From Eledone cirrhosa (taxonomy: Eukaryota), in assembly GCA_964016885.1 (NCBI GenBank), contig OZ024763.1, forward strand, positions 18,724,001-18,788,000: a stretch of DNA of 64,000 bases, in the 5' to 3' direction. Both the position numbers and the translations under genes were made by a program. A model generated the notes under the pieces. The model worked only from the letters and a program-made list of their open reading frames with translations, searched no databases and was not told the DNA's origin. Of the stretch, positions 13,586 through 64,000 are shown piece by piece. How positions within the stretch are numbered: the stretch's first letter is position 1; each line of letters opens with the position of its first letter.

Positions 13586-15102
13586 AAACCAGTAGAAAGA
13601 GGGAGGAAAGGGTCAAAAGATGGCGTTTGCAGAGTTTATGGTGTTTCATTAGAAAAATCTTTGCTATTTCCGCAAAACAAAATACAGCCTTGTTCCTGTA
13701 ATAAAGCAAACATCACCACCACCACCTCTATCACATCTCCTACCACCACCACCACTATCACTGTCACCACCACCACCACTGCCACCACCACCACCACTAT
13801 CACCACCACCACCACCACCACTATCACTGTCACCACCACCACCACTGCCACCACCACTATCACCACCACCACCACCACCACCACTATCACTGTCACCACC
13901 ACCACCACTGCCACCACCACCACCACTATCACCACCACCACCACCACCACTATCACTGTCACCACCACCACCACTGCCACCACCACCACCACTATCACCA
14001 CCTTCACCACCACCACTATCACTGTCACCACCACCACCACTGCCACCACCACCACCACTATCACCACCACCACCACCACTATCACTGTCACCACCACCAC
14101 CACTGCCACCACCACCACCACTATCACCACCAGAACATCCCCCCACTACCATCACCATCATCAGCATCACAACCATCACCACTACCACTACGACCACGAC
14201 GACCACCACCACCACCATCTCCAAAACTATTCTTTTGGACTCACCATGAGAAGAGAGGAGAAGGTTAGACAGTGAAGTGTGGGTGGGGTGCTGTGAGGGT
14301 CGGGGAAGTAGGGTAGGGCAGGGGTTGCAATGTTATCTTTTAGAAGTAAAACAAAATTAACAATTAAACAAGCAAAAAAACCCCCAAAACAATGACGTAA
14401 TTACCCCCCTCCCCAAAAAAAAAATCAACAACCACCCTCCAAAGCCCCAAACTCCGATGTCGTCCTCCCCTGCATCTCAAAACATATACCTCCTTCAAAG
14501 AAAACATAAATCCCCCCCCTAAAAAAAAAGGGTTAAAAACAACTCCTAAAAAAAACCCACATCCTCTTCCCCCAAAACATATACCCCCCCTCCACAAGAA
14601 CCCCTCCCCCCAGGATAAAAATAACTCTCCAAAAAATCGCCCCCACCCCTCCTAAAAAAAAAAATCAATATCCCTCCTTCGCCTCCCCCAAAAGATAAAA
14701 ATAACCCCCTAAAAAAAGATAAAAAAGTAACCCCCTAAAAAATAAAAATAACCCCCTTAGAAAAATAAGTATAATCCCTCCCAAAAAATCCCACATAACC
14801 CTTCCCCTAGAAAAAAAAGCAACATCTTCTCCCCCAAAACATAAAGCAAAACACATATAAGCCCCCCCCCCCCCCCCGAAACAAAACAGCACAACAATAT
14901 AAATACAAAGAAGACATTTTGAGATTTTGAGATTTTGTTTTAAAATAGAGTCCAGATGTTAAACGGAGTTAGTGAAGATGGTTTTAGGTTACATAACAAG
15001 TTAGATGTTGAAAGATCCTCACCTTAAAGTGGAGGTCTTAATAAATTAGAACAGCATATACACACACATATATATATACACACACACATATATATATATA
15101 TA

Positions 15103-15272
15103 TATTGTTATACTTTGGGAGGGTCATGTTGCCAATAAGAAACACACGCACCAGTTGCTTTCACTTCAATTTATTATAATAAATTTATAAATTTATTATA
15201 ATAAATTGAAGTGAAAGCAACTGGTGCGTGTGTTTCTTATTGGCAACATGACCCTCCCAAAGTATAACAATA
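15103..15272. repeat. Perfect ~170-bp palindrome with one-sided ~45-bp tail
   Basis: Arms are exact reverse complements centred on AAATTTATAAATTT; same termini and tail as 35191-35775. Confidence 0.9.
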
Positions 15273-15311
15273 TCGGTTGCAACACACGATTTCAGATAAA
15301 GAATCTTGCTA

Positions 15312-15397: not shown

Positions 15398-15762
15398 TAT
15401 ATTAATAAGAGGAATTCCAACTTTGTCTGATTTACTCGTTTTATTTACAATCCTTTAAAATATATATAATGGTATTATAATGAAATAGTATGATAGAATA
15501 TTAAATTCTAAGTGTTAATTGAACAAGTACTTTCATGCTTTCGCAATCTTCAGGTTCATGATATGTGGTGGCAGTCGAGTTTGCAATTTTCAACTGTCAC
15601 CACATATCATGAACCTGAAGATTGCGAAAGCATGAAAGTACTTGTTCAATTAACACTTAGAATTTAATATTCTATCATACTATTTCATTATAATACCATT
15701 ATATATATTTTAAAGGATTGTAAATAAAACGAGTAAATCAGACAAAGTTGGAATTCCTCTTA

Positions 15763-15770
<8 letters not shown>
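15398..15770. repeat. Near-perfect ~370-bp palindrome containing paired hammerheads
   Basis: ~175-bp arms, ~20-bp loop, followed by (TA)n. Confidence 0.9.
15610..15648 (+). ncRNA. Minimal type I hammerhead ribozyme motif (antisense twin at 15520-15558)
   Basis: UGAAC-CUGAAGA-U UGC GAAA GCA U-GAA-AGUACU-U^-GUUCA; GNRA-capped stem II, palindromic stem III. Confidence 0.75.
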
Positions 15771-16805: not shown

Positions 16806-19092
16806 ATCATCATCATCATCATCATCATCACCGTTTTACGTCCGTTCTTCCACGCTAGCATGGGTTAGACGGGTTGTCCTGTTGTGGGCAGTGTCTGGTC
16901 GGCTGACCATGCCTTGCTCATACAGGAACTGATCTGGCTTGATTTCTACAGCTGGATGCCCTTCCTAACACCAACCTCATTTACAGTGAGTGCTGGGTGC
17001 TTTTTCGTGGCGCCTACACGTCCACTTTACAGTGTGGGCTGGGTGCTTTTTTGCCGTGGCACCTCCACGACCACCTTGCGGTGGGGGGGGGGGGGCATAT
17101 TGTTTATATGCTTCAGCATGTACCCATGGGAGGTCGGGTACCCTGTATTACTGCGTGACGCCAGAAGTCACGGTCGTGTGTCATTGACTTTGAGAGGTGT
17201 AGTTGGGTAAGGTCGGCTTTTATCACCTCATCCCAAGTCATCTTGGGTCTCCCCACTCCGCGGTTTCCATCAACTTCTAGTGCTCTGCACCTTTTTATGC
17301 AGCTGTCATCCTTCATACGCATCACATGTCCATACCAGCGTAACCGCCTCTCCTGCACGCAGCATTTGATTCCTCTTATGCTCAGTCTCTCTCTCAATTC
17401 ATTTATGCTTTGTCGTTCACGTATATTACTGTTACACATCCATCGGAGCATGCAGGCTTCGTTTCTCTCTAATCTACGTAAGTCTTCCACCTTCAGCGCC
17501 CAGGTCTCACTACCATGCAACATCGCTGTTCGGATACACGCATCATACAGTCTGCCTTTCATTCTGAGGGAGAAGCCTTTTGCAGCTAGCAGTGGTAGTA
17601 GTTCCCTAAACTTCTTCCATCCCGTTCTTACCCTAGTTATTGTACTTTCTGAGCACCCACCTCCGTTGCTAATTCGGTCACCTAGGTAGCAGAAGCTGTC
17701 TACTGTTTCTACAGGGCCCTCCCAGAGATTGGTGGTACTTGTTTCCTGTGGCTGTTTGCTTGCTGTTTCAGCACAGCTGCTGCATGTGAATCCTACATTC
17801 TTAATTAAGCTTCCTGAGATCCCGCTACATCTCTTGTGTACCCATTGTTTGCATTTGGGGCAAAGAATGGAGTTCCTACCTACACCTTTCCTACATACTG
17901 AGCAAGGCCATTTCCCTGAGGGGATCTGGGTTCTGTTTTCTCGTCTACTTATAAGGACCTTAGTCTTTGTCATGTTGACTTTGAGGCCCTTTCTCTCTAG
18001 TCCCTGCTTCCAGGTTTGGAATTTATTCTCTAGTTCTACCATAGATTCAGCTATGAGTGCGAGGTCATCAGCATACAGGAGTTCCCATGGGCATCCGGTC
18101 TTAAACTCCTCCGTTATTGCCTGCAGGACTATGATGAACAGGAGAGGGCTAAGAACAGAGCCCTGGTGGACCCCAACCTGTACGCTAAATTCCTCGCTAT
18201 ACTCATTGCCAATCCTAACTTTGCTGACTGCTCCCCTATACATGGCTTGTACCGCTTTCACAAGCCATTCATCTACTCCTAGTTTTCTAAGAGCCCACCA
18301 GATTACTGCACGTGGAACTCTGTCAAAGGCTTTCTCAAGGTCGACAAATGCCAAGTAGAGTGGCTTACTTTTAGCTAGGTACTTTTCCTGTAATTGCCTC
18401 ACAAGGAAGAGCGCATCAGTGGTGCCTTTCCCTGGTACAAACCCAAATTGCATCTCGTCTATATTCACCCGGTCCCTAATCAGCTGTGCTATAACTCTTT
18501 CTGTTACTTTCATGACCTGGTCCATCAACTTTATACCTCTATAGTTTCCTCTATCTAGTGCATCGCCTTTACCTTTGTAGCAGTTGACAATGATGCTACT
18601 GCACCAATCTTTTGGTATGGCCCCCTCTAGTATTACCTGGTTAACGATACGTGTGGTTATAGTGTGACCTACAGACCCAGATGCCTTCAGCATCTCGGCA
18701 GCTATACCCGATGGGCCGGTTGCCTTCCCTATCTTCATATCTCTGATTGCCTTACTTACTACGCTGCCGCTGACTTGTACTGCTGGTCCCTCTATAGGGT
18801 CTACGTGGGGTAGGGTCTCTTCTTCCCATGCATTCTCCTCATTTAGTAATCTATCATAATGACTCTTCCATGCATCTTTCTTCTCAGCACTTGTGAGGGC
18901 AAGCTCACCTTTATCATTCCGGATACACTTCTCTCCAATGACATCACAACTATCTCTGACACACTGCCTCGCAATCTTGAATACCTCCTGTTTCTGGTCC
19001 TCACGTTGTAAAACATGCTTGAATTTTCTATCCTCTGCTTCCCTCCTAGCTAAGTATACTTGTCGCCTAGCTTCCCTCTTGGTCTCTATGTA
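16806..19092 (-). mobile_element. 5'-truncated RTE-clade LINE
   Basis: RT motifs (NYRGIKL, QFGF, FVDLEKAFD, QGSVLSP, YADD), C-terminal RLRWYGH/GRP motifs, 3'UTR shared with many fragments in the window, (GAT)n tail at 16806-16830. No endonuclease domain. Confidence 0.92.
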
Positions 19093-19242
19093 ATGACACC
19101 TAAGACCAATATTGTCACTGGAAACTTTGTCTGCATGACTCTGGGCACGTCTTTGGATGAGACGCCATTCTCCTGCTGACGCCGAGAAAGTCTGAAATTT
19201 CCTTATTTGTCCTCCCGGCGCGGATTCCAAGAAGAACTCCAT
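17113..19242 (-). CDS. 709-aa chimeric ORF: ~50 aa mariner-derived N-terminus fused to LINE reverse transcriptase + PHD-like Cys/His finger
   Basis: ORF track; RT motifs intact; CSVC...CPKC..WVH..C...CSSC finger after RT. The first ~50 codons lie in the mariner segment (19093-19242). Confidence 0.75.
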   Translation of the reverse strand: MEFFLESAPGGQIRKFQTFSASAGEWRLIQRRAQSHADKVSSDNIGLRCHYIETKREARRQVYLARREAEDRKFKHVLQREDQKQEVFKIARQCVRDSCDVIGEKCIRNDKGELALTSAEKKDAWKSHYDRLLNEENAWEEETLPHVDPIEGPAVQVSGSVVSKAIRDMKIGKATGPSGIAAEMLKASGSVGHTITTRIVNQVILEGAIPKDWCSSIIVNCYKGKGDALDRGNYRGIKLMDQVMKVTERVIAQLIRDRVNIDEMQFGFVPGKGTTDALFLVRQLQEKYLAKSKPLYLAFVDLEKAFDRVPRAVIWWALRKLGVDEWLVKAVQAMYRGAVSKVRIGNEYSEEFSVQVGVHQGSVLSPLLFIIVLQAITEEFKTGCPWELLYADDLALIAESMVELENKFQTWKQGLERKGLKVNMTKTKVLISRRENRTQIPSGKWPCSVCRKGVGRNSILCPKCKQWVHKRCSGISGSLIKNVGFTCSSCAETASKQPQETSTTNLWEGPVETVDSFCYLGDRISNGGGCSESTITRVRTGWKKFRELLPLLAAKGFSLRMKGRLYDACIRTAMLHGSETWALKVEDLRRLERNEACMLRWMCNSNIRERQSINELRERLSIRGIKCCVQERRLRWYGHVMRMKDDSCIKRCRALEVDGNRGVGRPKMTWDEVIKADLTQLHLSKSMTHDRDFWRHAVIQGTRPPMGTC

Positions 19243-20319
19243 GTCTCTTCCACAAATTTGGAGGTTCGAAATTATTCTTAATCAATTATTCTGAAAATAA
19301 ATAATGGAAATATAGTCAGTGTTTTTATGAAGACAAGAGTGACAACGGAAGTAAAGAAAACTTGCATAAAATTAGCAGCTGAATATCGTCCACACCCTGT
19401 ATATACAGATACACACACATATATCATCACCACCACCACCACCACTATCATCACCACCACCATCACCACCACCACCATCACCACCACCACCACCACCATC
19501 ACCATCACCACCACCATCACCATCACCACCACCACCACCACCACTATCATCACCACCACCATCACCACCACCACCATCACCACCACCACCACCACCATCA
19601 CCATCACCACCACCATCACCACCACCATCACCACCACCATCACCACCACTATCATCACCATCACCACCATCACCATCACCACCATCACCATCACCACCAC
19701 CACCACCATCATTACCACCATCATCACCACCATCATCATCATCATCACCACCACCACCACCATCACCACCACCACCACCACCACCACCACCACCACCACC
19801 ACCATCATCACCATCATCATCAACACCATCATCATCATCATCATCACCACCACTATCATCACCACCACCATCACCACCACCACCATCACCACCACCACCA
19901 TCATCACCACCACCATCACCACCATCATCATCACCACCTCATCATCATACTTTGTTTCCCCTTCCTTTAAAGAAATGTCATACGTCCCTTCAAAATGTTA
20001 TCCATCAACCCAATTTAAATATAAACCCCTCCCCCTCCAGAAAAGCACCTCCTCCCCCGCAACAACCCCTTAACAGTTGAAAAAAAGCACAACCCCCTTG
20101 CCCCCCGAAACAAAACCTTCTCCCAGCCCTGGACAGTCATAACATGATACAATAGAAAGTATTTAGCTGCCATTTAAAATACTACTTGCATGTTATTAAC
20201 TTCCGTTTATGAAGCCCTCCCTCCCACCCCCACCATTTGTTGTATAATCATCTTGTTGTCACCTTCTCATTCATAATCTGTTTAGTGTTGTATTGTGGAA
20301 TAATTGTAGTTGATTTTAT

Positions 20320-34255: not shown

Positions 34256-34659
34256 ATATGCAAGCAGGGAAGAGCAGACATAAAATGATGATGATGATGA
34301 TGATGATATATATAACAGTTTTGTAGCTTGCTTAAAGGAAGGTTTAGCTGGAAACATAAATTTAAATTTTGAAGACCAACACAATGCGTAATGAAGAAAG
34401 CTAAATTGCCAAGATAACATTTAACAACCCCAAATATTTCAGGTTTAAAAACCCATTATCAAGGTAATAATCCTATGAGAAATTTAAGAAACGATCGGAT
34501 AGACTTGCTTGTATGGAACTGAGCGATTTGTAAGTCTCTCATTGGGTTATTCCTTTGATAATTGGTTTTTAAACCTGAAAATATTTGGGGTCATTAAAAT
34601 TGCTATGGCAATTAAACATTCTTCATATGCATTGTTTTGGTCTTCAAAATTTTAATTTG

Positions 34660-34962: not shown

Positions 34963-35190
34963 TTAACCCTTTAGCATTCATATTACTCTATATATACTAT
35001 AACATTTTCATGGTAAAGGCTTTACCTCACATAACATCGAATCTATGAGATTTTGAAAGTATTTATTTTGAGAACAATACCTTAACATCAGTTTGAGTGG
35101 CCAGTTACAGCCAGTTTCAACAGACTATATGCATTTCAGTGACCAGGTTAGATAGAATCCTGGCAACATATATATATATATATATATATA

Positions 35191-35717
35191 TATTGTTATA
35201 CTTTGGGAGGGTCATGTTGCCAATAAGGAACACATGCACCAGTTGCTTTCACTTCAATTTATTATCATAAATTTATAAATTTAGGAATTTATAAATTTCC
35301 GGTTGGTTGGTTGGTTCCACAACCAGATGGTTGTTTATATATTGTCAAAGTTCTTTGGTCACACATTCTGTGACCTCTTCAGTGACTGGGGATTATTTTG
35401 TTTGTTTTTGTGCCTCTCCTTTGTTCTGTCCTATGTCATCTTGAAACAAGATGGCGTAGGCGTAGGACAGAACAAGGGAGAGGCACAAAAACAAAGAAAA
35501 GAATCCCCAGTCACTGAAGAGGTCACAGAATGTGTGACGAAAGAACTTTGACAATATATAAACAACCATCTGGTTGTGGAACCAACCAACCAACCAACCG
35601 GAAATTTATAAATTTATAAATTCCTAAATTTATAAATTTATTATAATAAATTGAAGTGAAAGCAACTGGTGCGTGTGTTTCTTATTGGCAACATGACCCT
35701 CCCAAAGTATAACAATA
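35191..35717. repeat. ~530-bp palindrome containing paired hammerheads
   Basis: ~250-bp arms with few mismatches; (TA)n flanks; one-sided tail to ~35775. Confidence 0.9.
35510..35552 (+). ncRNA. Minimal type I hammerhead ribozyme motif (mutated antisense twin ~35344-35385)
   Basis: GUCA-CUGAAGA-G GUCACA GAAUG UGUGAC-GAA-AGAACU-U^-UGAC. Confidence 0.7.
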
Positions 35718-35905
35718 TCGGTTTCAACACACGTTTTCAGATAAAGAATCTTGCTAAACAAATTCAGAAACGAAATATATATATATATATATATACATAC
35801 GTATACAAGGTGACCACAAAAACACTCCTTGATTTCAAGGAAAAGTGTACATAAAATGATGATTATGTTGATATATATAAATACATGTGTGGTGCGTGTA
35901 TATGC

Positions 35906-43082: not shown

Positions 43083-43700
43083 CTAGTAGCTGAGCCCGGT
43101 TGCACCCGGGGCCACTTTTTATTAAGTTAATAATTTGAAAAATATTATTGAAAGTTTATTATAAAGAAGCAGTTTCAGGGAAAAAAAATAGAAATATGCA
43201 CTTGGGGCTGGACGGCGTACAATGAGAAGTGGAGCGACGTGAAAAGCGTTGTTTATTAACAGCGAAATAGCAATGTCGATGATATGCAATTTGAAAAATA
43301 CTACTTACTGTTAGTGGTGGTTAACATGTATTAGAATTAAAATAAAAACACGCGTCCCTTCTTCGCAATCTAAGGGTTTTATTTCTTTTGATGGAAAACA
43401 GTGACCGTACTGCAGAATCGATTTCATAAAACGGTACTGTGAAAATGAAACGTACTGTAGAAGGCAACAGTTTATTAATCTGCATTTTCAAATTTGCATA
43501 TCATCGACATTGCTATTTCGCTGTTAATAAACAACGCTTTTCACATCGCTCCACTTCTCATTGTACGCCGTCCAGCCCCAAGTGCATATTTCTATTTTTT
43601 TCTTCCTGAAACTGCTTCTTTATAATAAACTTTCAATAATATTTTTCAAATTATTTGTACTGTATGTTAACAGCGAAAGAACGTTGAGGAGTTTAAAAAT
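43083..43700 (-). mobile_element. Helitron-like 3' terminus followed by ~170-bp inverted repeat
   Basis: Minus-strand CCCGGGTGCAACCGGG hairpin + CTAG|T at 43083-43110; inverted arms ~43128-43297 and ~43485-43655. The far boundary is uncertain. Confidence 0.55.
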
Positions 43701-44160: not shown

Positions 44161-44501
44161 GTAAATACCTCAAATCTTTGTCTCCCACCCCCTTCTCTCC
44201 TTCCTCCCTACTGCACCTTCTTTTATTTTTGTTCTGGAATCTGTCAGCATGTATAGGTGTATACATATATACACTGTATACACCTACAAGCACATATATA
44301 AATATATATATATATATATGTAAGAATATATTCGAAACGGCGAGTGGGTTTGAAATTATTAGAAATGTAAGCTATCGCCGTATTTTGACTAAAGAAATTA
44401 AAGAAATTATTTAGCCTGATAGTGGGGTTAAGAACCCTCGGAGAAATGGAAAAAGATGAGTATTGACGTACATGGGAGACGAACCCACATCTTTGGTTAT
44501 C

Positions 44502-44533
<32 letters not shown>

Positions 44534-44610
44534 ACGAAGGCAATGTGGTAAGGAACCAGGTGGACCATAACGCACCAAAGTACTCAATACTTAGGCTAGT
44601 AGAGTGGGTA

Positions 44611-44962
44611 ATAGGAACCAGTAAGACCCCGACGGCTGAGCTCAAGCTGTTTCGACGGCTAATTCTGGACTAAATGAAAATTTATCCTGGTATTTAAATA
44701 GCCGAGCTTCTCAAGGGGTAATTCCATATATGGTCAAAGTGATTGTCAAAAGTCAGTAGTAATTCTGTGATTGCAAATTAGCCACCATCTCCCCTACTAA
44801 TTTGCAATCACAGAATTACTACTGACTTTTGACAATCACTTTGACCATATATGGAATTACCCCTTGAGAAGCTCGGCTATTTAAATACCAGGATAAATTT
44901 TCATTTAGTCCAGAATTAGCCGTCGAAACGGCTTGAGCTCAGCCGTCGGGGTCTTACTGGTT

Positions 44963-44967
<5 letters not shown>
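44611..44967. repeat. ~355-bp palindrome containing paired hammerheads
   Basis: ~170-bp arms, 16-bp loop, one-sided ~80-bp extension to 44532, (TA)n flanks. Confidence 0.9.
44859..44952 (+). ncRNA. Type I hammerhead ribozyme motif with U3-A8 variant core (antisense twin ~44626-44719)
   Basis: ACCCC-UUGAGAA-[G..CGGCUA...UAGCCG.C]-GAA-ACGGCU(7 nt)AGCCGU-C^-GGGGU; canonical GUC site. Confidence 0.75.
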
Positions 44968-45003
<36 letters not shown>

Positions 45004-45176
45004 TAGGTATTAGTATTGGTGCTCTGAAATGGCGATGTAGACATGAATGTATGTATAGTATATTTGGCAATATACCGTATGTTTAATTAAAAACATTTAG
45101 AAGATCATACGCTATCGGTTTTACAGTAGTGACTATGTCACTTACTTCTATTTTCGGCGAAAGAAGGGAGAGAAGC

Positions 45177-45227
<51 letters not shown>

Positions 45228-45315
45228 GTTGTCAAGTATGAAATCTGTAGAAATTTAGAGGAAAAAAAAAACAAATTCCTACAAATTTCATACTTTATGA
45301 CCCAATATATTATAT

Positions 45316-45503
45316 AATTGTTTCTACTTTAGGCACAAGGCCAGCAATTACCCAGTGTGTTACTGGTACTTTATTTTATCGACCCCGTAAGGATGAAAGG
45401 CAAAGTCAACCTCGGCGAGATTTGAACTCAGATCGTAAAGGGACGTAACTATGCTGGAAAGCATGGCGTCCGACCCTCTACCGATACTGCCAATCCACCG
45501 CCC
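45316..45503 (-). mobile_element. SINE (major family)
   Basis: Reverse complement of the same motifs. Confidence 0.8.
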
Positions 45504-45565
45504 CCAATATATTATATAATAATAGTAAGAAACGAAAGATATGTATTTTATATCATCTCTATTAA

Positions 45566-45638
45566 TTTTATTATATATATTTCGAAGATGCAAAGTTTAT
45601 ATATAACATAAACCAAAACATGTCCTCTTCAGACAAAA
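45566..45638 (-). ncRNA. Type I hammerhead ribozyme motif
   Basis: UUUUGU-CUGAAGA-[extended stem II]-GAA-AUAUAUAU-A^-AUAAAA. Confidence 0.6.
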
Positions 45639-45700
45639 TACATACAAGATGTATAATTTTTTAATGATATGCTGGTAGACAAACAAGCTTTTTTCATTGA

Positions 45701-45758
<58 letters not shown>

Positions 45759-45767
<9 letters not shown>

Positions 45768-45928
45768 AGATCAAAAGATGGTTAAAAGAGTTCCATGTAT
45801 TTTATTATGCGCATTTCAAAAACAAATATCATCATACAATAATATTATTGCATGATGATATTTGTTTTTGAAATGCGCATAATAAAATACATGGAACTCT
45901 TTTAACCATCTTTTGATCTTATATATTA
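45759..45928. repeat. ~170-bp palindrome with degenerate hammerhead-like motif
   Basis: Arms reverse-complementary around AATATT; AUGAUGA...GAAAUGCGCAUA motif. Confidence 0.85.
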
Positions 45929-46012
45929 TGCATACTCCAGTCCTACAAACTGTAGAGTGCTTCTTATCCGATATCTGCATTGCTTTATTGTACTACAATA
46001 AAACTCACCTCC

Positions 46013-46059
<47 letters not shown>

Positions 46060-46101
46060 GATATTAAACAAATGGAAACTATATTTATAAAACCATATTT
46101 A

Positions 46102-46163
46102 TTTCATTATACATATTTCAGGGATACCATATTAAAAATATGGCATGCCTTCTTCAGATAAAA
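46102..46163 (-). ncRNA. Type I hammerhead ribozyme motif
   Basis: UUUUAU-CUGAAGA-AGG C AUGCCAUAUU UUU AAUAUGGUAU C CCU-GAA-AUAUGUAU-A^-AUGAAA, overlapping AAUAAA. Confidence 0.72.
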
Positions 46164-46484
46164 TACAATATATAAGCAGTTTTATAAATAAATTTGACGT
46201 ACCATAAAATATTGATCAACTTCCATTTAAAAAAGTTGGTTTGGTAGTGAAATGTTTGTAAATATTTAGTGTTGAGCACAGTTAGAAAGAAAGATATATC
46301 TACTCCAAAACTTGTTGAGTGCTTTATATCAGTTATAAAATATTTACTCGTTGTAACCCAACAATTTTAAATAAAACTTTTGCATATATATATATATATA
46401 TTTGTGTGTATATAACTTCCTCCTAAGCGTGATATTAATAGGACTTGGTGTTTTTGTATCTGTGTTTGTCTCAACATTTCTTTA

Positions 46485-46532
<48 letters not shown>

Positions 46533-46642
46533 ATGTTAGTATCGTGAGAGAGTAGAAGGTTTAAAGGGATAAACGATACATATATGTTCTAACAGTCTGT
46601 ATTCTCTTTCGTAATCCTTTCATTTATATATATATATATATA

Positions 46643-46992
46643 TATAAAGTGTTTCCGTAGGAAGGGTAAAGGAAAGGAGAGTTATATGCTACAGAGCTAT
46701 TTATTTATGTAATAAACAACATAAGACAATCATTCCATTTACCAAAGGTTTCACGAAGACAAGCGAGCTCAACACAGACGTCTGAAATGGATCATCAGAA
46801 TGAAATTTTATTTGAAGACTTTAAATAAAATTTCATTCTGATGAGTGATTTCAGACGTCTGTGTTGAGCTCGCTTGTCTTCGTGAAACCTTTGGTAAATG
46901 GAATGATTGTCTTATGTTGTTTATTACATAAATAAATAGCTCTGTAGCATATAACTCTCCTTTCCTTTACCTTTCCTACGGAAACACTTTAT
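46643..46992. repeat. ~350-bp palindrome containing paired hammerheads
   Basis: ~170-bp arms, tiny loop, (TA)n on both sides. Confidence 0.9.
46831..46903 (+). ncRNA. Type I hammerhead ribozyme motif (antisense twin ~46730-46805)
   Basis: UUUCAUU-CUGAUGA-[stem II incl. AGAC/GUCU]-GAA-ACC UUU GGU-A^-AAUGGAA; GUA site. Confidence 0.7.
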
Positions 46993-47659
46993 ATATATAT
47001 ATAGTGAAACCTATATATATCTATATCTAGGGAGTGTAACTTGGAGTTACTGCAGGTTCACCCGGGTGAGCACTCGATGTTTAGGTTCACTTCAGTGTTG
47101 AGGTGTAGAGCTAGACAGAGTGTAATATATAGAAAGGATAACAAGGACGATTGGTTACTCCTTCATTACATTTATTGGTAGGTGACACGTGTTTCACCAC
47201 TGATCAGCTCAAGGTTCGATCTGTATCGATCTTACACGACTCTATAATTGGCAGCTCGACGGACCCTATATATTAATTTAAATTCAGCGAGATTCGTATT
47301 TCGGCAGGGTCGAAAACAAGCAAAAACGCAATATCTGAGTTATCAGCATAACAAGCGCTCCATGGACCAAATAGAGACCAGAGCAATAAACATAGGTTAT
47401 AAAGGCCAAACAAACTAAGATGGCGGTTAAGAAGCCATCAACCACCTAAGCCAAAAAGACAAGGCAAGCCAAATGTGTCAAACAAAATACATGACGTATT
47501 CACCCGGACCCCATGGAACTGATGGTGTAGTCCAGTACAGGCTTTCTGTGACACCTACATCAATTATACTGCTGCCTCATTAGAATAATTAGCTTTTGGT
47601 ATAATGATAGAATTGACCCAGTACTTTACTAGTGTTGTGTTTTAAACCTGGTGGCTCCC

Positions 47660-62229: not shown

Positions 62230-64000
62230 ATTGTATGTTCTTCTGGTTTTATAATTTCACAAAGTTTTACCAATAGAGAGAGAGTTGGTTTCTAACACAG
62301 ACACAAGACTCTCACATTGGAATTTACACAACATCAACTAGGTAGATATGTATGTATGTCTGCATACATGCATGTGTAGATATGGATGTTATTGTATGTG
62401 TGGCTGTGTATGTTTTGAGTTGTATGTGTGCATGTGTATATGCTTTGTATCTGTACATGTGTATATGCAGTTATTAGATGCAAATTTTTTGGAATGTTTT
62501 ACATATTTTTACTGTTCCATTAATGGATTGTACTTGTAATTTCCTAACTAGTTGTGTTCTTTCTGTTCCTGTGAAGCCTAGCTTCTCAAGATTTGTATTG
62601 AGGCAGTTACTAACATATCCCAGTGCCCCAATAATCACAGGCATAAATCTGAAGGTGTAATCAGGGTGGAGTATCTGCAGATTTCTCATCAGTTCTGCAT
62701 AAATATTCTCCTTTTCACTAATCTTTGATATTATATTGGCATCTGCTGGGCAGCTAATTTCCACTGCTGTGCATGTTTTCTTCTCCCTGTCCCATATCAT
62801 AATATCTGGTCTGTTATGCCTGCATTTTATTGGGGTTTTTACTGGAACATTCCACCAGTACTCTTTCATATTATGTACATAGATGTCTTCCACATTGTTG
62901 TAGCTTTTAATGTGTTTATTATCGGGGCTATCTTTTTTACGAACTGCATTGTACAGTGTTTTAGCCACTACATCATGCCTCATAGGTAGATAGTACCGCG
63001 ATGATATCTTTGGGCAGCTGCTGATGACATGGGTGATATCCTCGATGTTAGTTCTGCAGAGTCTGCACTTGTTATCACATCTAGGTGTTTTGCCTGCATC
63101 CCTATCTCTTTTGTGAATCAGGTATTTTGTACTAATCTCCTGTTCTTGGATTGCAAAAGCGTATCCTTCAAAGTGGGAGCCAATATAGCGGTTGTTGGTC
63201 CAAGATAGACTACTTTCCTTATCTATATTACTCTCACTCTGGAGCTTCCTGGCAACATATCCATGCATGATTTTTTGCTGATAGGCATGCAGTTTTTCAT
63301 CCATGGATTCACTGCGATACTGCTGAGCGACATCCCTGGGTGTGAGTTTTTGATTATCACACAGGGAATATCTCTCGAGGAGTTCCTTCCCAACTCTCAT
63401 GATCTTATCTGTTTCATGCAGATAGACTTGCTCGAGAAGCGGGCTCCTACGCTTCGAGGTTCGTAGATGTTGTCGGAGAGATATGATGCGACATTCAAAT
63501 GTTGTCTGGACTGATGTTAGGCCTCTGCCTCCCTGCTTACGTTTCAAGTAAAGGCGGTCTATGTCACTGTTGATGTGGAAGTTTCCGGTGTTGTTCAGTA
63601 TTTTTCGAGTTCCAACATCAACTGCTCGGATTTCGTCTATCGTCCACTTGAGTATTCCAAATGTTGGTGTTAGGACAGGCACAGCAAACACATTGTGAGC
63701 AACTGTTTTGTTTTGCGCAGAGAGTTCCGATGACCAGATCTTTCTTAATCGGGTGTAGTATTCCCTGGTTACACGTTCTTTATTACAGATACCATTATAG
63801 GATATGTTCTCATCTATCCCCAGGTATGGTATCTGTAGCAGTCCTCATCAGATATCGGTGAAACAGTTAGACCATTGATGACAATGTTGCTAGATTGGGT
63901 TGTTGTTTTTCCCCGCTTTACAGTCATGTATGAGCATTTATCTTGGCCAAACTCCATTCCTATATCCTTTGAGAACGTTGTAACCAGGTCAAGATTTTTC
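62230..64000 (-). mobile_element. R4/Dong-like non-LTR retrotransposon (RT C-terminus + CCHC knuckle + restriction-like endonuclease), continues beyond window
   Basis: FSKDIGMEFGQDKC and YRYLG-like RT end with a ~5-bp duplication frameshift near 63826; CRLC...HVISSC, RHD, RPD...E..CP...K..Y RLE motifs; 3' end abuts (CATA)n. Confidence 0.85.
62474..63691 (-). CDS. C-terminal 405-aa part of RT-RLE polyprotein (pseudogenised)
   Basis: ORF track; RLYLKRKQGGRGL, CCHC zinc knuckle, PD-(D/E)xK nuclease. Confidence 0.8.
   Translation of the reverse strand: MFAVPVLTPTFGILKWTIDEIRAVDVGTRKILNNTGNFHINSDIDRLYLKRKQGGRGLTSVQTTFECRIISLRQHLRTSKRRSPLLEQVYLHETDKIMRVGKELLERYSLCDNQKLTPRDVAQQYRSESMDEKLHAYQQKIMHGYVARKLQSESNIDKESSLSWTNNRYIGSHFEGYAFAIQEQEISTKYLIHKRDRDAGKTPRCDNKCRLCRTNIEDITHVISSCPKISSRYYLPMRHDVVAKTLYNAVRKKDSPDNKHIKSYNNVEDIYVHNMKEYWWNVPVKTPIKCRHNRPDIMIWDREKKTCTAVEISCPADANIISKISEKENIYAELMRNLQILHPDYTFRFMPVIIGALGYVSNCLNTNLEKLGFTGTERTQLVRKLQVQSINGTVKICKTFQKICI

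Follow-up and report, generated by a model that had tools for sequence, protein, structure and literature searches.

The window, a 64,000-nt stretch of animal DNA rich in microsatellites, carries a 436-nt element between two (TA)n runs. SINEs of octopus-like appearance flank the element. Most of its length is an inverted repeat (44611-44967) in which a 15-nt spacer separates two 171-bp arms that differ by one mismatch; what an earlier note on this DNA had called a 355-bp hairpin is actually a 357-nt span. The anatomy of the insertion is as follows.

44505..44533, no strand: (TA)n microsatellite, probably the left half of the insertion target
44532..44610, minus strand: 79-nt 3' tail on the left arm only, probably of Penelope-like element (PLE) type
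44611..44781, minus strand: left arm of the inverted repeat, the element reading outward
44778..44800, plus strand: inversion junction, consisting of TTAG, the spacer (44782-44796) and CTAA
44797..44967, plus strand: right inverted-repeat arm, which lacks a tail and directly abuts (TA)n
44965..44995, no strand: (TA)n microsatellite, probably the right half of the insertion target

Both ends of the element thus meet (TA)n, in a window of which 9.5% lies inside such runs or within 5 nt of them. Each arm contains a hammerhead motif, and both copies point outward from the centre of the hairpin. The right-arm copy, on the plus strand at 44859-44952, is of type I, with its ends in stem I.

44859-63/44948-52, plus strand: hammerhead stem I, ACCCC/GGGGU, 5 bp
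44864-70, plus strand: hammerhead core UUGAGAA, with U3 at 44864 and A8 at 44869
44871-79/44917-24, plus strand: stem II, in which G10.1 (44871) pairs with C11.1 (44924)
44925-28, plus strand: GAAA of the right-arm hammerhead
44928-33/44941-46, plus strand: palindromic stem III, six Watson-Crick pairs
44947, plus strand: C17 of the GUC site, predicted cleavage on its 3' side
44853-58 with 44959-64 (span 44853-44964), plus strand: extension of helix I in the predicted fold, with a 6-nt bulge at 44953-58
44626-44719, minus strand: left type I hammerhead copy, core identical to the right, U3 at 44714, predicted cleavage after 44631

The earlier note had read the core as UUGAGAA in both arms, next to a 5-bp stem I and a GUC site, and all of this holds, with the identical cores on the plus strand at right and on the minus strand at left. 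Its long stem II proved discontinuous, being built of one pair, a 2x1 internal loop with a C10.2/U11.2 mismatch, six further pairs and a 37-nt closing loop. The 6-bp stem III that it had assigned to both arms is present in the right arm; in the left arm one pair is broken at 44648, the sole arm-to-arm difference (G at 44930 on the other side). Since the pairing letter at 44648 accounts for 93% of family depth in sequencing run X1, the left arm is the changed one and the change is private. Position 44959, within the predicted helix I extension, is variable in the family.

The motif follows the type I pattern N3-UGA-N-N8-A / GAAA / UH with a Watson-Crick 3-8 pair, here U3-A8, and has three helices of 5, 1+6 and 6 bp, although the hammerhead form is not the minimum-energy fold. 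A core register one base earlier was rejected, as it misplaces G5 and A6. We conclude that this is a genuine hammerhead-ribozyme motif whose core pair, usually C-G, is U-A. The premise that positions 3 and 8 form a Watson-Crick pair and tolerate U3-A8 agrees with Perreault 2011 (PMC3088659), which cites in vitro activity; here and below, published work is compared through parts of each source. A strict descriptor fitted to the motif matched none of 150 block-wise dinucleotide-shuffled windows and none of 20,000 shuffled versions of the 171-nt arm, figures that overstate significance because the descriptor was fitted post hoc. An ATG 12 nt ahead of the core opens a frame of only 22 codons.

Standard searches pass the motif by. 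Rfam returned no match at gathering score in the whole window and, at E<=10, no hammerhead among 59 matches in 44450-47100; its miRNA matches are generic hairpin matches below gathering score. The Rfam test is insensitive here because a canonical-core motif at 46838 was overlooked as well. The expectation that strict CUGANGA searches would miss UUGAGAA was therefore correct and extends to Rfam, so that these searches under-count U3-A8 hammerheads.

A high-copy family and its core alleles

The stretch bearing the element is partly present in 17 of the 20 listed sequencing runs, with no RNA run among those containing it. Family analysis used runs X1, X4, X5 and X6, which represent four organisms and four studies; nine rows of small share and runs X2, X3, X7, X8 and X18-20 were left out. 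Family contigs numbered 13,858 in X1, which is possibly the window's own sample, 3 in X4, 41 in X5 and 2 in X6. In X1, depth (which does not equal copy number) falls from 3.6 million over the tail to 0.24 million over the core region, about 15-fold, and to 0.01 million over the spacer, about 360-fold, a drop that gives the polarity of 5' truncation. Loose ends in (TA)n cluster at 44544 (157 in X1, 4 in X5) and at 44611 (68 in X1, 1 in X5), and family copies thus terminate in (TA)n close to either boundary of the tail. The family is therefore high-copy and 5'-truncated, with both end types present.

A loose end at 44617 in X1 (167 loose ends, agreement 0.49) represents a divergent subfamily. 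Its GUC, its stem I and the palindrome at the centre are kept, and the 3' strand of its stem III differs, with a hint of compensated stems.

U3 makes up 66% of X1 depth and 61% of X5 depth at the core, is the sole letter in X4 and X6, and occurs together with A8 in all four runs. An uncompensated C3 with A8 occurs in one X5 contig and, in X1, in 49 contigs that make up 34% of the depth. C3-G8 copies were not seen at >=3% in any of the four runs, although an absent row falls short of proof, and at the 3% threshold no row showed a change at position 8 or an inserted base in the core. Thirteen of the 14 core positions had no variant at >=3%. Outside the core, an A at 10.2 (41% of X1 depth, and also in X4, X5 and X6) restores a stem II pair, the C16.3U allele lets stem III retain a G-U pair, and a 4.6% change disrupts the top pair of stem III. 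Pooled contigs thus show, as covariation goes, one pair-restoring, one pair-keeping and one uncompensated core allele. With the private change at 44648 excluded, 6 of 46 loop positions and 4 of 48 core or stem positions vary (p=0.34).

The family majority retains the paired U3-A8, as a consensus check on the earlier note's proposal asked. Its further claim, that the compensated core supports selection on catalysis, is not shown by these data, because C3/A8 forms a large minority of X1, C3-G8 is absent at >=3% and variation is not significantly depleted. The C3/A8 copies in X1 and X5 argue that an intact core is dispensable for some amplifying copies. Because U3-A8 and C3/A8 subfamilies coexist, they offer a natural experiment on whether PLEs need hammerhead cleavage in order to amplify.

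Insertion anatomy and the other hairpins of the window

The reading that we prefer, at a probability of about 0.78, is that the pLTR, or 3' end, of a PLE family was inserted twice into (TA)n, head to head and with 5' truncation, which gave the 436-nt element with a U3-A8 type I hammerhead in each arm. Several features expected of a PLE pLTR are present: 5' truncation with an adjacent inverted, head-to-head copy; a type I hammerhead close to the 3' end; and a one-sided tail with two recurrent 3' ends, the tail of 79 nt exceeding the 30-40 bp usually cited. Published PLE insertions show 5' truncation, an adjacent inverted 5'-truncated copy, a tail at one end and a (TA)n bias (Craig 2021, PMC8557442); head-to-head is their commonest form (Arkhipova 2013, PMC3846280), and tail length equals the spacing of two reverse transcription start sites (Frangieh 2024, PMC11167929). 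Recently active Penelope-like families have been reported for Octopus vulgaris (PMC13282606).

Membership in PLE rests on anatomy because no reading frame could be linked to the element: no PLE frame (RT plus GIY-YIG) was linked to it within the window, where Pfam on 48 of 187 candidate frames detected just the RT with PHD finger at 17116-19281 and a PHD fragment, and a 46-aa frame in the tail had no relative. Also speaking against this reading are the long tail, the lack of an extra core nucleotide and a stem III that exceeds the length seen in the minimal hammerheads of metazoan PLEs.

How might such a double insertion arise? The element endonuclease would cut the (TA)n target, and the two target ends would prime reverse transcription at start sites 79 nt apart, one yielding the tail-bearing and the other the tail-less end. 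Both cDNAs would end early and be joined through the 4-nt TTAG/CTAA match, making the hairpin a by-product of their joining. In contigs of other organisms (X4 record 10, X6 record 21) the spacer runs continuously into the arm; the spacer is therefore element sequence in right-arm sense, which, at this one locus, suggests that joining of two cDNAs fits better than fold-back of the tail-bearing strand. Fold-back predicts a spacer in left-arm sense, the opposite of what is seen, and would require that the spacer flipped later; self-priming is the route favoured for such PLE junctions by Arkhipova 2013 (PMC3846280). A junction with the spacer after the tail-less arm thus bears on how PLE inverted repeats arise. 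Within the tail, 44551-44566 echoes a motif of the tail-less end, 44613-44628 (81% over 16 nt), perhaps in connection with two reverse transcription start sites.

Near-perfect 171-bp arms between TA-rich flanks would also suit a foldback or MITE DNA transposon whose termini are the arms and whose hammerhead-like motif is fortuitous. With an asymmetric tail, a strongly polar family depth, a spacer that other organisms' contigs join to one arm and a motif that was not found in shuffles, we regard this as extremely improbable.

The element might instead be a non-autonomous hammerhead retroelement, either a non-LTR retrozyme or SINE-like, that has no coding version of its own and uses PLE protein in trans. 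Its copies are indeed very numerous and short, no ORF was found, loose ends carry differing 5' extensions, and animal retrozymes have been proposed to derive from PLE pLTRs (bioRxiv 10.64898/2026.07.22.740005). Retrozymes, however, are head-to-tail tandems, whereas the window copies are inverted and 5'-truncated: the window has no direct copy, and no tandem joint came up among the family contigs bar one minor row. This origin therefore seems quite unlikely.

Seven other hairpins were examined. In four of them one arm abuts (TA)n and its partner reaches (TA)n after a further 43-86 nt; among the remaining three, (TA)n flanks both sides of one hairpin and a single side of another, and the last has none. 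Outward-facing CUGANGA hammerhead motifs occur in the hairpins at 35190, 15398 and 46633, so the hairpin form is independent of U3-A8. These and other hammerhead-like or retroelement features of the window are:

46633-47003: (TA)n-flanked hairpin; canonical CUGAUGA hammerhead at 46838 (plus) with 8-bp stem I, bases after the core altered in the left copy (46798, minus)
35190-35718 and 15102-15273: hairpins of one other family, with a one-sided 43-56-nt tail to (TA)n; the longer insertion, 35190-35718, has CUGAAGA motifs at 35514 (plus) and 35382 (minus)
15398-15770: hairpin with outward CUGAAGA minimal hammerhead motifs at 15615 (plus) and 15553 (minus)
45758-46015: 172-nt hairpin with an 86-nt extension between (TA)n runs; by eye, a degenerate hammerhead-like motif and palindromic GCGC
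45632 (minus), 46157 (minus), 9002 (minus), 8786 (plus): solo AT-rich type I motifs with canonical cores, apparently interrelated by eye
34358-34658: old hairpin with 78% arms, UUGAUAA ... GAAA in both, stem I not assignable; possibly a second, decayed U3-A8 family
43129-43655: two 171-bp arms in inverted orientation, 190 nt apart, no (TA)n flanks and no clear hammerhead
17116-19281 (minus): non-LTR retrotransposon remnant with RT and PHD finger (Pfam), best protein match 69% identity
33178-34095 (plus): non-LTR retrotransposon remnant with a PHD fragment (Pfam)
62477-63844 (minus): non-LTR retrotransposon remnant, a frame with no Pfam match that presumably resembles a restriction-like endonuclease C-terminus

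Predicted folding and the possible origin of the U3-A8 core

Stems II and III have sequence in common (CGGCU at 44874 and 44929; AGCCGUC at 44918 and 44941), and because of it an alternative fold is predicted to beat the hammerhead form. In folding energies that leave out tertiary contacts and magnesium, the hammerhead form of the right arm lies 3.2 kcal/mol above the ensemble, or 5.1 with more flank, and that of the left arm 6.1 kcal/mol; the predicted population of the hammerhead fold in the window copy is only 0.5%. Family alleles shift the cost of 3.2 kcal/mol to 1.0 with A10.2, 4.5 with C3 and 6.9 with U16.3, the last computed in the background of the window copy. We counted the restored pair of A10.2 and the retained G-U pair of C16.3U in favour of our preferred reading, and the raised cost of C16.3U together with p=0.34 against it. 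The 44850-44960 transcript that the earlier note proposed for cleavage is predicted to misfold, and U3-G8, a natural combination in PLE hammerheads (PMC4209133), may retain activity.

Stem III with its loop is a palindrome bar one base, and its predicted homoduplex (-32.1 kcal/mol) is far more stable than the hairpin (-7.8 kcal/mol), making dimers as plausible as monomers. According to the PLE reading, the ribozyme in full-length family RNA would cut after GUC, probably weakly, either aided by protein or once two molecules have paired along their palindromic stem III. At the window locus the situation would differ: a transcript from either flank makes the antisense arm first, for which reason the ribozyme is predicted to be trapped in double-stranded RNA and to stay silent, locked in the long hairpin. 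Indeed, adopting the hammerhead form within the whole element carries a predicted penalty of about 142 kcal/mol on either strand.

Published PLE hammerheads with palindromic stem III are reported to cleave slowly and as dimers (PMC4209133; PMC6765202), fungal ones with a large helix III cleave as monomers (PMC4209133), and the Anolis PLE hammerhead cleaves only with protein and is dispensable for insertion in vitro (Frangieh 2024, PMC11167929).

From the full stem III the earlier note had suggested monomeric activity, which as a rival reading gives an active monomeric U3-A8 ribozyme able to work from the window locus. The right arm does have every core nucleotide and a 6-bp stem III, and the fungal precedent is a monomeric one. 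Weighed against the hairpin penalty, the costs of even the isolated arms and a palindrome that favours dimers, that suggestion is weak, and we consider such an active monomer highly improbable.

More to be reckoned with, if still somewhat unlikely, is a decayed relic, descended from an ancestor with the common PLE core CUGAAGAA, from which one A was lost, leaving U3 and C3 alleles that drift with no catalysis. The C3 allele equals CUGAAGAA, the commonest core in Cervera Fig. S3, minus one A; a third of X1 depth is C3/A8 and no G8 row was seen; the window copy is predicted to populate its hammerhead fold very little; core and stem variation is not significantly depleted; and a PLE can insert in vitro with no need of its hammerhead (PMC11167929). 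A drifting relic fits poorly, however, with a core in which all positions but one lack variants at >=3%, with U3-A8 in all four organisms, with an A10.2 allele that re-pairs stem II and with the lack of any inserted-A row.

The relation of the C3 allele to CUGAAGAA suggests a history of deletion followed by compensation. A more elaborate version has the lost A move another A into position 8 and C3U then re-pair the core, both steps persisting as live subfamilies, while the stem II/III duplication acts as an off-switch released by the element protein; we rate this two-step route as very unlikely.

Relation to known hammerheads and retroelements

The U3-A8 core variant is already published, and the window copy is a further example. 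U3-A8 covariation occurs in several natural hammerheads, cited as active in vitro (Perreault 2011, PMC3088659); these have the compensatory pair in common with ours and belong to different elements, PLE insertion anatomy being absent from the text compared. In Schistosoma PLEs, about 1,300 U3-A8 motifs have been counted (Cervera and de la Pena 2014, PMC4209133). In the literature searched, no description of the present family was found, and a search for C3U/G8A gave nothing relevant; Lunse 2017 and Przybilski and Hammann 2007 might bear on novelty and on U3-A8 rates. In sequence, a metagenome scan with a 16-letter pattern returned 118 loci whose best match, 31 nt, was judged chance, and scans of genome contigs and viral contigs gave no match. 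In the part of the Craig 2021 supplement compared, neither the Hydra-1_Obim hammerhead nor the Naiad_Obim 3' end matched the element by eye, and a motif search found no stem III and six matches to an 8-letter core term, the two of them compared being unrelated.

Non-LTR retrozymes (Cervera and de la Pena 2020, PMC7229834) resemble the window element in being small non-coding animal repeats with a type I hammerhead. They differ in forming tandem head-to-tail monomers that give circular RNA (PMC7229834; bioRxiv 10.64898/2026.07.22.740005), tandems that the window element lacks.

Published PLE insertions (PMC3846280; PMC8557442; PMC11167929), like the window element, combine a head-to-head inverted 5'-truncated copy, a tail on one arm, an AT-rich or (TA)n target and a pLTR hammerhead; the window element departs from them in its tail of 79 rather than 30-40 nt and in having no ORF left. 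Particularly close are the Cercyon pLTRs of Schistosoma mansoni (Sm3, Sm4; PMC4209133), which like the window element have type I hammerheads with U3-A8, a 4-5-bp helix I and G10.1-C11.1, a palindromic helix III region, mostly truncated copies and opposite-strand motif pairs 100-700 bp apart. In Cercyon hammerheads, in contrast, the core is 8 nt long, with one more nucleotide ahead of 10.1, and there is nearly no helix III (PMC4209133); the core of the window element counts 7 nt, its stem III 6 bp and its loop II 37 nt, and no ORF is linked to it. Judged as a PLE minimal hammerhead (min-HHR), the window motif thus falls outside the type, with no extra nucleotide between 9 and 10.1 and a stem III of 6 bp that is not vestigial. 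To these known systems the present case adds an animal family of U3-A8 hammerheads that is high in copy number and has an unusually full stem III.
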